Shown: positions 2,016-26,539 of the stretch, piece by piece
How the letters are laid out: the number at the start of each line of letters is the position of its first letter
How positions within the stretch are numbered: the first letter of the stretch is position 1
Program-made: the position numbers and the translations under genes
The notes under the pieces: generated by a model
Told to the model about the DNA's origin: nothing
Database searches by the model: none
The model's input: only the letters and a program-made list of their open reading frames with translations
Source of the DNA: an uncultured virus (IMG/VR IMGVR_UViG_2941446319_000001)
Lineage: Duplodnaviria; Heunggongvirae; Uroviricota; Caudoviricetes
IMG/VR virus record: IMGVR_UViG_2941446319_000001
DNA: 34,747 bases
Strand: one strand, 5' to 3'

Positions 2016-2258
2016 CTAGGCTGCGAGGAGGGAAGCGCGGAGCTCGTCCCGCTCCTCAGGAGTGGCCGGCACACGCTCCCCGAGATGAAGGCACCGGCCG
2101 ATCACGGACAGGTCGCGCCAGTCGTACCAGGCCGTCTTGCCCAGCTTGACGATGAGGCGGGCGTGGTGGCGAGAAGCCCACACGCGGACGGTCGGCTCGG
2201 GCTTACCCAGGCGTCGGGCAGCGTCAGCAATGGTGATCCGCTCAGGCTTCTCCTGCAT
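2016..2258 (-). CDS. HTH DNA-binding protein
   Basis: ITIADAARRLGKPEPTVRVWASR is an HTH-like motif. Confidence 0.75.
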   Translation of the reverse strand: MQEKPERITIADAARRLGKPEPTVRVWASRHHARLIVKLGKTAWYDWRDLSVIGRCLHLGERVPATPEERDELRASLLAA

Positions 2259-2280
2259 GCTGGTCACCCCCAGACATGCG

Positions 2281-2314
2281 AAAAGCCCCCGGACCATACG
2301 GTCTGAGGGCCTTT
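2281..2314 (-). terminator. intrinsic terminator-like hairpin
   Basis: Minus strand reads AAAGGCCCTCAGACC-GTAT-GGTCCGGGGGCTTTT. Confidence 0.6.
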
Positions 2315-2363
2315 GCTCCCACGTTGACTCCGATTTATAACAGCTCACCGGCGAAAACACCAA

Positions 2364-2528
2364 TTACGACTCGCCAGAACTTTCGCAGTCGAGGCCGAAG
2401 TACTCCTCCACGGTCATCGCCCGATCCTCGTCCAAGACACGAAGAGGCAGGTACGACGGGACCACATCGAAGCCTCCATCGCGGCGGAAGCATTGGAATG
2501 CCGAGGCCGGAGGGGAAGTGGCGCACAT
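2364..2528 (-). CDS. small hypothetical protein (54 aa, not in the ORF track)
   Basis: MCATSPPASAFQCFRRDGGFDVVPSYLPLRVLDEDRAMTVEEYFGLDCESSGES*, preceded by GGAGAAGAA. Confidence 0.4.
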   Translation of the reverse strand: MCATSPPASAFQCFRRDGGFDVVPSYLPLRVLDEDRAMTVEEYFGLDCESSGES

Positions 2529-2557
2529 TTCTTCTCCGTCACCCCGGCACAGTTAAG

Positions 2558-2631
2558 CCTCGCTGACTGGGCTCGAACCAGCGTCCACCCGGGCCCAAGA
2601 GCCGGGCGCTCTACCACTGAGCTACAGCGAG
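2558..2631 (-). tRNA. tRNA-like RNA with a non-canonical 9-nt anticodon loop (CTT, Lys-like), no encoded CCA
   Basis: CTCGCTG-TA-GCTC-AGTGGTA-GAGC-G-CCCGG-CTCTTGGGC-CCGGG-TGGAC-GCTGG-TTCGAGC-CCAGT-CAGCGAG-G folds into a full cloverleaf with D and T-loop signatures. Confidence 0.75.
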
Positions 2632-2651
2632 GGCCGTTCCATCATCGCCTA

Positions 2652-4067
2652 TCAGGACGAGTGCCCGCCACCGAAAAGCGGACGAGACGGAAGATCCGAC
2701 ACGACCACACCAGCTGAGAGGCCGTGCGCCACGTCTTCGGCCAGCTCCGGCTTGACCCGCTTGCCGCTGAACACGCCCGCCCGGCGCAGCAGCGACGCCC
2801 ACACCGGGTCGGCGATCGTCACCCCGTGCACAAGTTCCGGCGTTGGCTCGAACACGACGACCCGATGCTTGGCCGGGCTGGCGGTCCACCCGCTGTCGGC
2901 CGGGTTCAGGCCGGCATCGGCGCATGCCTGCTCCACGTCGGCCCGAGTGCATGTCACTCGACCGGACAGCACCTCCCACGGCAGCGGCAGCGATGACCAC
3001 ACCTTCGTGTTCGGGTCAAGATCGCCGCCCGATTGCTGGTGCCACCACGCCAAGTCGGCCGCCATCAGCCTCATCACCTTGCCAGGGCATGCCGCGTCCA
3101 GCAGGGCGAGAGCGTCCATCGACTGCAGGCAGGCGAGCCAGCCGGCGCGGGCAGCGTTGTACGCCTGGGCGACGGTGTTCCACGTGGAGGAGTCGTCGCC
3201 GCGGCGGACCACCATCGACTCCCGGCTGAACGGCCGGGTGTTCCAGATGTGCTCCAGCCGTTCAGCGCACTGCCGCATGACCGCGTACCAGGCGCCGAGC
3301 ATTTCGCCACGCTGGGCGTCGTTGAGCCGGGCGAGGATGGACGGCTTGGCGTACACGACGGCGATCATCGCCCAGTCGGTGCCGGGGTTTCGCTCGCAGC
3401 GGGCCATCAGCATCTCGGCCACGTCATCGAACGGGTTGCCTTTGCCGGTCAAGCTGAACTGGCGGCGCATGTTCCGGCGTGCCGTGAAGTAGGCGACGAA
3501 GCACGCCGCGTCGACGTCAGCAGCGAACCGGTCCTCGGTGATGGTGGCGGCGAATCCGCTCCGCCCGATCAGCAGCAGACGGCGCAACTCTTTGCCGTCG
3601 CCAAGCTTGGACGCCTTCGCGGCGAGTCGGCCGAGCGCCCGAAAGCGCCGGTTGTACTGCCGCTTCGGCAAGTCGATGCCCGCAGAAGCGCGGCCGGCAC
3701 GGTCGAGTCGGCCGCTCTTGAAGTCGGCCCGGTCTGCGCTCCACCCGATCTCCCGGCCTGCGAGCGCGGCCACGTCTGCCAGCGCGATCGGATCGTCGGC
3801 GTTTCGGCCAGTCCACTCATCGCTGTCGAAGAGGCGTGCCACGGCAGCGAGCTGGTGCGCTCCATCCTTCGGCTTGGCGAACTCGTCCGTCATCGACGAC
3901 ACGTAACCGCGACGCCGATAGGAGTGCCGCGCAGCCTGTTCAAGGATCCGCCGCTCGCGCACGTCGAGCGCACCGTCGAGGGCGAGGTGGACCAGGTCGG
4001 CGACATCCTCGGGGCGCATGCGGCGGTCGAGGGAGCGGTGCAGGTCGTAGATCGGGGCGTTGGCCAT
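2652..4067 (-). CDS. hypothetical protein (471 aa, largely helical)
   Basis: Long ORF with SD AGGAGA; no catalytic motif I can name. Confidence 0.85.
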   Translation of the reverse strand: MANAPIYDLHRSLDRRMRPEDVADLVHLALDGALDVRERRILEQAARHSYRRRGYVSSMTDEFAKPKDGAHQLAAVARLFDSDEWTGRNADDPIALADVAALAGREIGWSADRADFKSGRLDRAGRASAGIDLPKRQYNRRFRALGRLAAKASKLGDGKELRRLLLIGRSGFAATITEDRFAADVDAACFVAYFTARRNMRRQFSLTGKGNPFDDVAEMLMARCERNPGTDWAMIAVVYAKPSILARLNDAQRGEMLGAWYAVMRQCAERLEHIWNTRPFSRESMVVRRGDDSSTWNTVAQAYNAARAGWLACLQSMDALALLDAACPGKVMRLMAADLAWWHQQSGGDLDPNTKVWSSLPLPWEVLSGRVTCTRADVEQACADAGLNPADSGWTASPAKHRVVVFEPTPELVHGVTIADPVWASLLRRAGVFSGKRVKPELAEDVAHGLSAGVVVSDLPSRPLFGGGHSS

Positions 4068-24110: not shown

Positions 24111-24668
24111 CTAAGGGGTCAAAGAATCGGAGGGGGTGGCCGACGACTTGCCGTGGCGCGTCAGCAGGTCTTCGAGGTGGTCCAAGCGCTCGGACATCTC
24201 CGCGAAGTCAGTGGAGGTCTCCCGCCTGAGGGTCTTGATCTCGCTCTGGCGCTGCTCGTCGCGCTGCTCCAGGCGGCGGATCATCTGCGAGTGCTGGCGG
24301 AGATTCATCTCCAGCCCGTCCATCCGCTTGCGCTCGTCAGCCGTAAGGGCGGACCTGTTGGCGCTCGCGGCCTTGTCGACGGCCTTGCCGAGCTGGCGGC
24401 GGGACTTCTTGTGGTGGTGGCGGGCGAGCGCTTCGTGCTCGCGGGCCTCGATGACGCGATATCCCTCATTGCGGACGCTGACGACGGTCCTGTGGTCCTC
24501 GATCTCAAGCTGCCGGATGGCCCGGTAGATGGGGCTGCGGTCCTCGCGGAAGTCGCGCTTCAGGATGGCGTCGAGCTTCTCGTAGGTGAGGACCTTGCCG
24601 ACTTCCAGCGCGGCGAGTGCGTCGTACACGAGGACCCACTGGGCCCTGTCGCCCTTGATTTCAAACAT
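24111..24668 (-). CDS. wHTH + coiled-coil protein immediately downstream of the repeat array (putative accessory protein)
   Basis: MFEIKGD...LTYEKLDAIL...IYRAIRQLE...VRNEGYRV is winged-helix-like, followed by a long heptad region; SD GGAG at 24675-24678. Confidence 0.75.
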   Translation of the reverse strand: MFEIKGDRAQWVLVYDALAALEVGKVLTYEKLDAILKRDFREDRSPIYRAIRQLEIEDHRTVVSVRNEGYRVIEAREHEALARHHHKKSRRQLGKAVDKAASANRSALTADERKRMDGLEMNLRQHSQMIRRLEQRDEQRQSEIKTLRRETSTDFAEMSERLDHLEDLLTRHGKSSATPSDSLTP

Positions 24669-24693
24669 GCGAAACTCCAGGTAGAAGTGAAGA

Positions 24694-25885
24694 TCCCTGC
24701 CTTGCCGCGCCCATGGCGGCCTTGGACGGCCCAGCCACGCCTTGCCGCACCCAGATGAGCGGGCGCCGGAGAGTCGAACTCCAGCGATGAGCCGAACGCC
24801 CTGGTGAAACCCCTGCCTTGCCTCTCCCTGCCTTGCCGCGACATGCCGGGCCGAGCCATGCCGTGCTCGTGGGTGGCGCGGAGTCGAACCGCGCAGAAGA
24901 CCGTCCACCCGAATCCATGCCTCGCCAGGCCGTGCCAAGCCCGGCCTGAACCAGCCACGCCTCTGCACGCCCCACCAAGCCGCACACCCAATCGGGGGCG
25001 GTCCAGGGCTGAGGTGCTAGACCCCAACCCCAGACCGTCACCGGCACCACGCCCTGCCCGGCCGAACAAAACCGGACCATGCCCTGGCGCGCCACGCCCT
25101 GCGCCGCCGCACCAAACCGGACCACGCCTTGCCGTGCCGTGCGCTGTTGCTGCCCGGGGGCAGCGGAGGGCCGCGAGACAAGCTCGCGACCGACCGCCGT
25201 CACCGGCCCAAACCTCACCCAGCCCGACCCGGCCAAGCCGTTCCGCGCCCGAGATCGGCACGCCATGCCAAGCCAAGCCCGCTCGGAAGCGGGGGAAGAC
25301 CACGGAGCTAGTCCGTGATCGACCTCCGTCGCCGGAACCTTGCCCGGCCTCGCCACGCCCTGCCTAGCCCGTCCGCGCCCTGCCGAGTCGAGCCGAACCG
25401 AACCCCGAATTGGGGGCGGCGCGGGAGTCGAACCCGCGCTACGACCATTCGCCCACCCACGCCATGCCTTGCCATGCGGTGCCTTGCCCCTGCTTGCCAC
25501 GCCTTGCCCGGCCAAGCCCCAGAGCGCGGGTGCCGAGGGCTCGAACCTCGGAGCCTGCCAGCCACCCTCCAAGCCTTGCCAGACCCCGCCGAGCCCAGCC
25601 ATGCCGCTCCCGGCCCTGCCTTCGGCCCTGCCATGATGCGCGGGCGTCGGGGCCTCGAACCCCGAAGGCTGCCAGTCGCCCTCCATGCCACGCCGAGCCT
25701 TGCCGAACCGAACCACGCCTTGCCATGCCCTACCGGTCCTTGCCGCTCCGAGAGCGCGGATGGCCGGGGAGTCGAACCCCAGCTTGCGACCATCCATCCG
25801 TCCCTGCCCTGTCACGCCTCGCCGGGTCGAGCCCGGCCATGCAGCACCCAGACCGGCCAGGCCAAGCCCAACCACGCCCCGCCTT
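24694..25885 (-). ncRNA. array of ten (GGY-NN)n guide-like RNA units separated by nine hairpins (VIPR-like vrRNA array)
   Basis: 5-nt period with GGC/GGT anchors and variable dinucleotides. Tracts at 25799-25883, 25682-25749, 25568-25632, 25459-25518, 25335-25404, 25207-25281, 25044-25143, 24914-24986, 24810-24867 and 24694-24751. Hairpins lie between them. Confidence 0.88.
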
Positions 25886-25918
25886 GACAGGCTCTGAACA
25901 GTCCGGGAAGTAGGCATG

Positions 25919-26539
25919 TCAGATCTCGCTGACCTCAGTCGAGAACCTGCCGTACATGGTCCGGAAGTCGCCGAGTCCTTCCATCTCGCCGGCCAGGCGG
26001 GCGACCTCGCGGAACTCGTCGTACTCGATCGCCTTCGGGTCGACGATGACGTCCGCCTCGACCAGCCAGTCACGGAAGATCGGGCGGCACCGGTCGACCT
26101 TGTTCCGCTGGACCGTGACCGGGCGGATGTCGACGAACTCGGACTCGCCGCCGCCCCACAGGCCCTCGACGTCGCGCGGCCCCTTGTAGATGAGCGGCAG
26201 CATGAAGTCGGCGATGACCACGCCGCGCTCGATCTTCTTGCCCGCCTTGATCAGCCGCGCCCCGCCGATCAGCGACCGGAACAGGTTCTGGCCGGGCATG
26301 TACGGGCCGAGCTGCGGATCGAAGTACAGGGAGCCTTCGAACTCGACGCGGGCGACCTCAAGGCGGTCCTCGTCGGTCTTGGTCCGCTTGGAGTTGAGCG
26401 CCTTCAGCTTCTTCGCGTACGGGTTGAGCGGGCTCGCAAGCTGCACGTTATGGAGCAGCAGCGGGCGGGTGCCCGTGCAGGTCATGCGGATCTTCAAGGA
26501 CTTGCCCTTCGTTTCGTTGTCCACTTTGTTCGCGAACAT
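25919..26539 (-). CDS. stand-alone RAMP/Cas7-like RNA-binding protein (Vipr-like); alternative start TTG 26497
   Basis: N-terminal strand with TGTRPLLLH, central PYMPGQNLFRSL and C-terminal glycine loop GEMEGLGDFRTMYGRF give a RAMP (RRM) architecture. No other cas genes nearby. Confidence 0.8.
   Translation of the reverse strand: MFANKVDNETKGKSLKIRMTCTGTRPLLLHNVQLASPLNPYAKKLKALNSKRTKTDEDRLEVARVEFEGSLYFDPQLGPYMPGQNLFRSLIGGARLIKAGKKIERGVVIADFMLPLIYKGPRDVEGLWGGGESEFVDIRPVTVQRNKVDRCRPIFRDWLVEADVIVDPKAIEYDEFREVARLAGEMEGLGDFRTMYGRFSTEVSEI

Follow-up and report, generated by a model that had tools for sequence, protein, structure and literature searches.

The sixth guide of a predicted ten-unit VIPR array in an actinobacterial prophage resembles a helix-turn-helix coding motif

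Within a 34,747-nucleotide stretch of DNA from an uncultured virus of the Caudoviricetes (IMG/VR record IMGVR_UViG_2941446319_000001), the whole of which we call the window, positions 25207-25281 of the minus strand are best read as the guide tract of the sixth of ten predicted vrRNAs, the RNAs of a Viral Interference Programmable Repeat (VIPR) system, and we lean, by a modest degree, towards a helix-turn-helix (HTH) coding stretch in a rival element as its likely target. That the locus is a VIPR system we consider very probable, because the adjacent protein is homologous to Vipr, ten NNGGY tracts follow it, the tracts have structured tails, and a conserved accessory gene is present. Taken alone, the assignment of the target of guide 6 to an HTH gene is, in our judgement from the tests reported below, nearly an even call that falls slightly on the doubtful side. 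The claim of an HTH helix in guide 6, read opposite in orientation to its neighbour, is statistically supported at the level of the motif and unproven as a target assignment.

VIPR systems are set out in the main texts of three 2026 preprints (10.64898/2026.04.26.720920, 10.64898/2026.04.26.720927 and 10.64898/2026.10.15.759431; the VIPR preprints). As described there, a vrRNA consists of 9-16 GGY/NN repeats and a structured 3' tail (10.64898/2026.04.26.720920), and a filament of Vipr protomers hides the GGY bases and presents the NN pairs (VIPR preprints). The target is double-stranded DNA (dsDNA), read on either strand with every third base skipped, and it is the NN pairs that set it; perturbation of GGY abolishes silencing (10.64898/2026.04.26.720920). 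The skipped bases are mostly codon wobble positions, there is no protospacer-adjacent motif, and natural targets, called at an NN match of at least 80%, lie in satellites and prophages and include lysis-lysogeny regulators and an excision recombinase (VIPR preprints). Phage SUSP1 has a natural target of this one-base-skip, wobble-aligned kind in a recombinase gene (10.64898/2026.10.15.759431).

Read on the minus strand, positions 25281-25207 form 15 NNGGY pentamers in a single phase and with no indel: CGggc TTggc TTggc ATggc GTgcc GAtct CGggc GCgga ACggc TTggc CGggt CGggc TGggt GAggt TTggg. GGY is present in 11 of the 15 units and GG in 13, units 5 (gcc) and 6 (tct) being those that lack GG. 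A preliminary description, made from the letters alone, had named this tract guide 6, a fitting name for the sixth of ten; the 15 variable dinucleotides that it listed are identical to those we read, and its translation of them as codon positions 1 and 2 is arithmetically right. The periodicity of the array is far from chance, as both the spacing of GGC and an in-phase scan of the whole genome indicate. Between 24640 and 25930 on the minus strand, the distance from one GGC to the next is 5 in 54 of 110 cases and 10 in 21. Across the 10.7 Mb bacterial genome in which the window lies (C2:945578-980324), 9 of 11 GGC in phase are found in this region alone, and 7 of 11 at 11 other places. Five GGC at period 5 have 15 matches genome-wide, 5 of them within the array, and the reversed control pattern has 12.

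The gene directly upstream of the array encodes a protein whose residues 18-203 match PDB 36pp_D, the 'SUSP1 Vipr protein' (phmmer E 5.2e-34). A profile of 24 Vipr homologs finds PDB 36pp as the sole solved structure matched (E 4.3e-40), and the product also matches phrog_4652 (E 2e-51); its AF2 model (pLDDT 93.5) has Csm3/Cas7 subunits as top Foldseek matches (Csm3 E about 5e-6, TM about 0.5). Arrays of the same kind are present in viral contigs, where six GGC at period 5 occur in at least 139 stretches; 135 IMG/VR loci that we fetched carry them, with a GC range of 0.36-0.73 among the matches listed. In 375 distinct arrays (5,391 pentamers), which were picked by the GGC motif itself, position 3 is G in 95%, position 4 is G in 93% and position 5 is C in 85% or T in 10%, and all 16 NN pairs are present at 3.5-10.8% each. 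A Vipr-family open reading frame (ORF) was found in 51 of the 135 loci, mostly directly upstream and on the same strand, and the upstream gene of the window belongs to this family. With the query used, no Vipr homolog was detected among 120 relatives (72 of the same genus), and a related-locus search gave no close relative of Vipr in viral contigs.

Downstream of the array, the 185-amino-acid product of the next gene has two homologs encoded directly after vipr, namely gp33 of Mycobacterium phage LittleE (E 4.5e-15) and gp77 of Gordonia phage MakoManhole (E 7e-11, annotated 'DNA binding protein'); it is also homologous to the product of the gene after the array in another locus (L035) and matches phrog_5926 (E 1.7e-9). 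Searches with it gave no Pfam family at E <=0.01, a weak best PADLOC match (E 0.0022) and a best PDB match that is not significant (E 0.044). Judged by its sequence relatives, this gene is the conserved candidate accessory gene of the clade. The locus therefore combines an adjacent Vipr gene, GGY/NN tracts, a structured tail after nine of the ten tracts and an accessory gene; two of the tracts are longer than 16 units, and non-GGY units are commoner than in the systems of the main text of 10.64898/2026.04.26.720920. The best match of every guide inside the window is at shuffle level, in line with what the VIPR preprints state in their main texts for self-targeting in other systems, and no targeting was seen when the guides were compared with other VIPR loci (277 kb).

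Guide 5, the neighbour of guide 6, provides the evidence that the published code holds in this locus and that at least one guide spells an HTH recognition helix. We searched the host genome for the pairs of each guide at period 3, on both strands, and compared the results with shuffles. Guide 5 matches C24:73369-73403 at 22 of 24 bases (92%), with shuffle maxima of 18-20; counted as dinucleotides, it matches at 11 of 12 pairs, and 150 shuffles reached at most 9 (mean count at 9, 0.093). The match is antisense to codon positions 1-2 of GRSTLYRALEDD and wobble-aligned, and GRSTLYRALEDD forms the HTH_7 helix of a resident Resolvase-domain ORF of the host genome. When up to three mismatches are allowed, the guide 5 pattern is present at 15 places in 12 of 81 same-genus genomes, and its reversed control in none. 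All six relative loci fetched carry the match in register over [GV]RSTLYRALE and vary at the skipped bases, and a regular expression for the serine-recombinase catalytic motif matches four of these six ORFs. Two of the 12 units of guide 5 lack GGY, and their NN pairs still match the target. The target has TniB, Mu-transposase-like genes and a second resolvase as neighbours. Guides 1-4 and 7-10 were all at shuffle level in the same search of the host genome. Guide 5 thus independently confirms, by computation, the published one-base-skip code and its wobble alignment.

The wider region around this target, C24:64000-83000, holds a Mu-transposase-like gene, TniB, a NACHT NTPase, two resolvases and a 2,802-amino-acid RHS-repeat protein, and looks like a Tn5053/Tn7-like transposon region.

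We scored guide 6 against a position-specific profile made from 20 HTH_17 domains of the host genome. In the sense orientation it reaches 18.5 bits in the register E-[L L. V. R. T.. R W], which runs from helix 2 through the turn to helix 3. This score was reached by 5 of 1,000 shuffles, by 29 of 20,000 in a later run and by 1 of 680 natural guide windows from other phages, and it is the best among 20 guide-by-orientation tests. A 15-base subset of the pairs (V, D/E, T, L/F, R, R, W), selected with the HTH motif already known, matches at least 120 viral loci. Among the 120 listed, 113 are open over 35 codons in register, in contexts such as LLGVDxxTLRRWE, and the reversed control of the subset matches 28 loci, open in 9-13 of the 28 per register. 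In 10 of the 12 top ORFs, an HTH Pfam family covers the match (HTH_Tnp_1_2, MerR/HTH_17, HTH_3/HTH_31 or Xre-like).

By homology with the SUSP1 and Pseudomonas fulva systems, for which the VIPR preprints show the mechanism, one Vipr protomer, encoded at 25919-26539, would bind each NNGGY unit, sequestering the GGY bases and presenting the NN pairs, and the filament would read dsDNA two bases on and one off, on either strand, forming a gapped RNA-DNA hybrid and blocking transcription. The NN pairs of guide 6, in RNA sense, fit helix 2, the turn and helix 3 of an HTH of the MerR/HTH_17/Xre type, and its most likely target would be the HTH-coding part of a gene in a rival mobile element, be it a regulator, an excisionase or a small-terminase-like gene. 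In that event vrRNA 6 would have the same sequence as the coding strand and would base-pair with the template strand, with the skipped bases on codon wobble positions. The preliminary description had given guide 6 the opposite orientation, which agrees with our finding that guide 5 is antisense to its target and guide 6 fits the HTH in sense. Its suggestion that DNA rather than mRNA is targeted accords with the dsDNA binding on both strands already known from 10.64898/2026.04.26.720920.

A number of results weigh against an HTH target for guide 6. The profile p value of about 0.0015 becomes about 0.03 after the 20 guide-by-orientation tests, and the subset that retrieves HTH genes was composed with the motif in hand; those genes match the full guide at no more than 22 of 30 bases, 15 of which are fixed by the seed, and a stricter 20-base HTH-anchored subset had no matches. 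The AT pair of guide 6 encodes I or M where the listed HTH genes mostly carry the turn glycine (xLG), and 4 of its 15 units are not GGY. With its four TT pairs, a target of high GC content would presumably need either Phe or the rare TTR codons for Leu at these places. In the host genome, its best match covers 9 of 15 pairs and 21 of 30 bases (70%), equal to shuffles, and the degenerate peptide reaches 9 of 15 in the six-frame translation, at shuffle level in both orientations. The full pattern with up to three mismatches is absent from 301 genomes of the family and 81 of the genus, and the ten exact seed pairs 5-14 match no viral locus. Exact seed pairs 7-15 match 22 loci in one-genome-per-species contigs, 2 in viral contigs and 27 in metagenome contigs, and pairs 1-8 match 12 viral loci; these seed matches extend to at most 24 of 30 bases, most are in other frames or interrupted by stops, and none is HTH-like. 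The preliminary description had proposed just such a gapped search of both strands as its check, with hits outside HTH genes or in another register as the adverse outcome, and the contiguous-seed matches, which are not HTH genes in register, go against it. The HTH likeness that it described stands as a motif, by profile and by subset, whereas no cognate target at the published level of at least 80% NN match was found in the host genome, in the related genomes or with seeds in three public collections. The target of guide 6 may simply be unsampled.

These points can be explained if guide 6 is a genuine vrRNA whose HTH likeness is coincidental, its target lying elsewhere in an unsampled element or the guide being orphaned or decaying, an explanation that we rate as appreciable, if less probable than an HTH-coding target. 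The lack of a target in any collection searched, the non-GGY units and the corrected p value all favour coincidence, as does the motif 'VARSTI' in the antisense translation, which is also HTH-like by eye and suggests that such likeness arises easily. Yet so few shuffles (29 of 20,000) and natural windows (1 of 680) match the profile score, the register is exactly that of helix 2, turn and helix 3, and guide 5 next to it, which can be proved to spell such a helix, has non-GGY units whose NN pairs still match. The antisense translation could itself be the meaningful one if guide 6, like guide 5, targets the opposite strand: it reads [KN]S[HQ]RR[KN]VARST[IM][KN][KN]R, has codons common in high-GC genomes and would escape reading the four TT pairs as rare Leu codons, and its 'VARSTI' presumably recalls recognition helices of the LacI/GntR type. 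We find this improbable, given that the antisense scores 4.3 bits against the HTH_17 profile (z 0.02), matches the host six-frame translation at shuffle level and yields nothing extended in pattern scans of both strands.

It is more improbable still that the tracts are not guides at all, and serve instead as RNA-binding sites for a ring or filament (TRAP-like), as two-tetrad quadruplexes or as an R-loop origin, with neutral NN. The near-uniform NN pairs and the 85-95% conservation of GGC across the 375 arrays are what this explanation would lead one to expect. Against it stand the homology of the linked protein to a Vipr of solved structure, the wobble-aligned target family of guide 5 with its zero-match reversed control, and published experiments, reported in the main text of 10.64898/2026.04.26.720920, in which NN specifies the target. 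Moreover, NN is AT-enriched in a genome of 68% GC, and is therefore not a product of neutral drift. TRAP-like repeats, two-tetrad G-quadruplexes, an R-loop origin and primase-site arrays were all dropped as candidates after the linked protein matched Vipr.

An HTH-coding target for the sixth of ten vrRNAs thus remains the reading that we favour, and the array around it has the following setting. The window has a GC content of 68%, and all its confidently coding frames are on the minus strand; its genes are phage-like and include a Toprim/AAA_25 primase-helicase, a C5 methylase, an AAA_24 protein and an HNH endonuclease. An intergenic region of 1.25 kb (24670-25918), with no convincing ORF, separates the minus-strand genes 25919-26539 and 24111-24668, and its minus strand consists of ten NNGGC pentamer tracts of 11-19 units, each in one strict phase. 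The gene order is vipr, array, candidate vap (accessory) gene, and the parts are as follows.

25919..26539, minus strand: vipr gene, 206 amino acids, predicted RAMP fold (from sequence and structure-model matches), product expected to polymerise along the GGY motifs
25801..25885, minus strand: predicted vrRNA 1 guide tract, 17 units (from pentamer phase)
25750..25804, minus strand: tail 1, tRNA-like minihelix with acceptor-like stem, T-arm and GTTCGA loop
25682..25746, minus strand: predicted vrRNA 2 guide tract, 13 units
25633..25687, minus strand: tail 2, tRNA-like minihelix
25568..25622, minus strand: predicted vrRNA 3 guide tract, 11 units
25519..25573, minus strand: tail 3, tRNA-like minihelix, 42 bases of it 97.6% identical to Streptomyces phage elements
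25451..25520, minus strand: predicted vrRNA 4 guide tract, 14 units
25406..25460, minus strand: tail 4, tRNA-like minihelix
25337..25396, minus strand: predicted vrRNA 5 guide tract, 12 units, antisense to GRSTLYRALEDD of a serine recombinase
25282..25336, minus strand: tail 5, CCGGCGACGG motif and hairpin, second tail type
25207..25281, minus strand: predicted vrRNA 6 guide tract, 15 units
25141..25206, minus strand: tail 6, CCGGTGACGG motif and long hairpin (minimum free energy -40.4 kcal/mol for 25216-25141)
25046..25140, minus strand: predicted vrRNA 7 guide tract, 19 units
24984..25045, minus strand: tail 7, CCGGTGACGG motif and hairpin
24909..24983, minus strand: predicted vrRNA 8 guide tract, about 15 units
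24862..24916, minus strand: tail 8, tRNA-like minihelix
24810..24864, minus strand: predicted vrRNA 9 guide tract, 11 units
24752..24806, minus strand: tail 9, tRNA-like minihelix
24694..24748, minus strand: predicted vrRNA 10 guide tract, 11 units, no clear tail
24111..24668, minus strand: candidate vap gene, 185 amino acids (from homology to post-vipr actinophage genes)

Tract 10 (24694-24748, minus strand) extends nearly as far as the ribosome-binding site of the accessory gene and its start codon at 24668. A CRISPR (clustered regularly interspaced short palindromic repeats) array, defined by direct repeats of 20-50 bases, unique spacers and cas genes, was rejected for this region, in which the repeats have period 5; cas families are absent from Pfam and PADLOC scans of the window proteins scanned.

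The tails of the predicted vrRNAs are of two kinds, and a stable fold follows nine of the ten tracts. Tails 1-4, 8 and 9 are tRNA-like minihelices, in which an acceptor-like stem of five base pairs stacks on a T-arm whose GTTCGA loop is invariant. Compensatory changes support 10 of 11 minihelix pairs in an alignment of 15 sequences from the window and the phages LittleE, Trine and Caliburn, from which we left out two of 18 GTTCGA windows that form no stems (L207:4037-4091 and L001:2816-2870) and one of three near-identical Trine tails. Units 5-7 share the other tail, CCGGYGACGG followed by a long hairpin. Among the matches listed, a simple detector found a tRNA-like tail in 3 of the 375 IMG/VR arrays. 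The main texts of 10.64898/2026.04.26.720920, 10.64898/2026.04.26.720927 and 10.64898/2026.10.15.759431, together with one supplement file of the first, make no mention of tRNA, and the tRNA-like 3' tails of six of ten vrRNAs may be undescribed.

The minihelix is also found apart from guide tracts. A 42-base form that is 97.6% identical to tail 3 is present in about 60 Streptomyces phage records, and in Streptomyces phage Caliburn (L001) a lone minihelix lies between protein genes at 2121-2175, 2492-2546 and 3153-3207 (minus strand), in a region (2050-3250) with no pentamer tracts. This suggests that the minihelix is a general actinophage RNA element that VIPR tails have in common with other loci, and it may be an RNA-processing module that VIPR has borrowed. 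RNase Z or RNase P of the host, with the CCA-adding enzyme as a further possibility, could divide the array into its units; maturation by tRNA processing, if it occurs, would parallel the arrays interspersed with hammerheads that the VIPR preprints describe in their main texts for other VIPR types. Considered jointly, the data tentatively outline an actinophage VIPR array architecture with minihelix-ended vrRNAs, in which at least guides 5 and 6 of the ten would be directed at the DNA-binding helices of rivals, although we would not yet bet on this combination. If it is correct, guides 5 and 6 would be aimed, in opposite orientations, at the most conserved codons of those helices.

ARAGORN calls a 92-base tRNA-Ala(ggc) at 24869-24960 (minus strand), which we rejected as false: it consists of the tail 8 minihelix and part of a GGC tract, and the Rfam tRNA model does not match it. 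At the gathering threshold, Rfam matches in the window a tRNA at 2558-2631 only, leaving the array unmatched. This tRNA (2557-2631, minus strand) is real, at 58.5 bits; ARAGORN cannot name it and gives a four-base anticodon 'cttg' at position 33, and it may have an anticodon loop of 8 bases.

Among the systems for which comparisons can be drawn, the VIPR of Escherichia phage SUSP1 (Vipr, vap1 and four vrRNAs; PDB 36pp) resembles this locus in its Vipr protein, with which the homolog here aligns from end to end, in its GGY/NN repeats, 3' tail and accessory gene, and in a wobble-aligned, one-base-skip target in a recombinase gene, here that of guide 5. It differs in having one upstream and three downstream vrRNAs, whereas here there are ten in one downstream array, in a high-GC actinobacterial host. 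Tracts here are up to 19 units long and contain many more non-GGY units, compared with the 9-16 units given in the main texts of the VIPR preprints, which also describe a clade pseudoknot tail for SUSP1 where we find six tRNA-like minihelices. The VIPR of the Pseudomonas fulva prophage clade, as described there, is likewise prophage-borne, and its guides favour transcriptional regulators of resident prophages, as we propose in kind for guide 6; guide 6, however, has no resident target, and the sole resident target found here, that of guide 5, is a transposon-type resolvase.

The closest isolated-phage homologs of the window Vipr, at 40-47% identity, are in the actinophages LittleE (gp34, followed by gp33), Gordonia Trine (gp41) and MakoManhole (gp78, followed by gp77). 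In both LittleE and Trine, NNGGC tracts are likewise accompanied by minihelix tails of the tRNA-like type. The NN strings of these phages differ from those of the window, and their genes are annotated as hypothetical or DNA-binding, with no RNA features. In LittleE (L207), tracts at 2167-2361 and 3658-3943 flank the vipr-vap pair (gp34, gp33), and the upstream ones overlap gene 35 on the opposite strand. In Trine (L208, 3112-3915), the coding sequence (CDS) of gene 40, a 'hypothetical protein', spans two NNGGC tracts and three tRNA-like tails after gp41, and probably represents a vrRNA array that was annotated as an ORF by mistake.

More distant parallels exist in CRISPR and in TRAP. Like Cas7/Csm3 of Class 1 CRISPR, the modelled protein has a RAMP fold and would place one protomer per fixed step of RNA with bases flipped out periodically; here, however, there is neither a repeat-spacer array nor, among the proteins scanned, any other cas gene, the system is carried by a phage, and the period is 5 with 3 bases hidden and 2 of every 3 target bases read, rather than 6 with 1. 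TRAP binds (G/U)AG repeats with spacers of 2-3 bases, in tracts of 11-13 units with a period of about 5. The array differs from TRAP sites in that its spacers carry target information and its binding protein is a RAMP protein, not TRAP.

The guide 6 tract is a VIPR guide, and so of a known kind, and this ten-guide locus of an actinobacterial prophage is a large natural example of such a system. The description of VIPR dates only from 2026, and the experimental work concerns the E. coli and Pseudomonas systems. Guide 6 offers a testable candidate beyond these, and the minihelix tail type could link vrRNA maturation to tRNA processing. There is also a practical consequence for annotation, as such arrays are now miscalled as tRNA-Ala or buried in a 'hypothetical protein' CDS such as Trine gene 40.

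Two features of other IMG/VR array loci deserve mention. In 19 of the 135 loci, though not in the window, we found a second family of about 150-175 amino acids with a conserved F/H-x-W-D-D-x-E-A-A motif, often encoded between vipr and the array (L011:876-1404, L025:953-1469 and L030:1026-1482, oriented coordinates), which is probably another accessory (vap) type. In L058 and L074 there are arrays that slip one base out of phase at regular intervals (GGCaGGC), and these shifts could correspond to the 'staggered, overlapping' architecture described in the main text of 10.64898/2026.04.26.720920.

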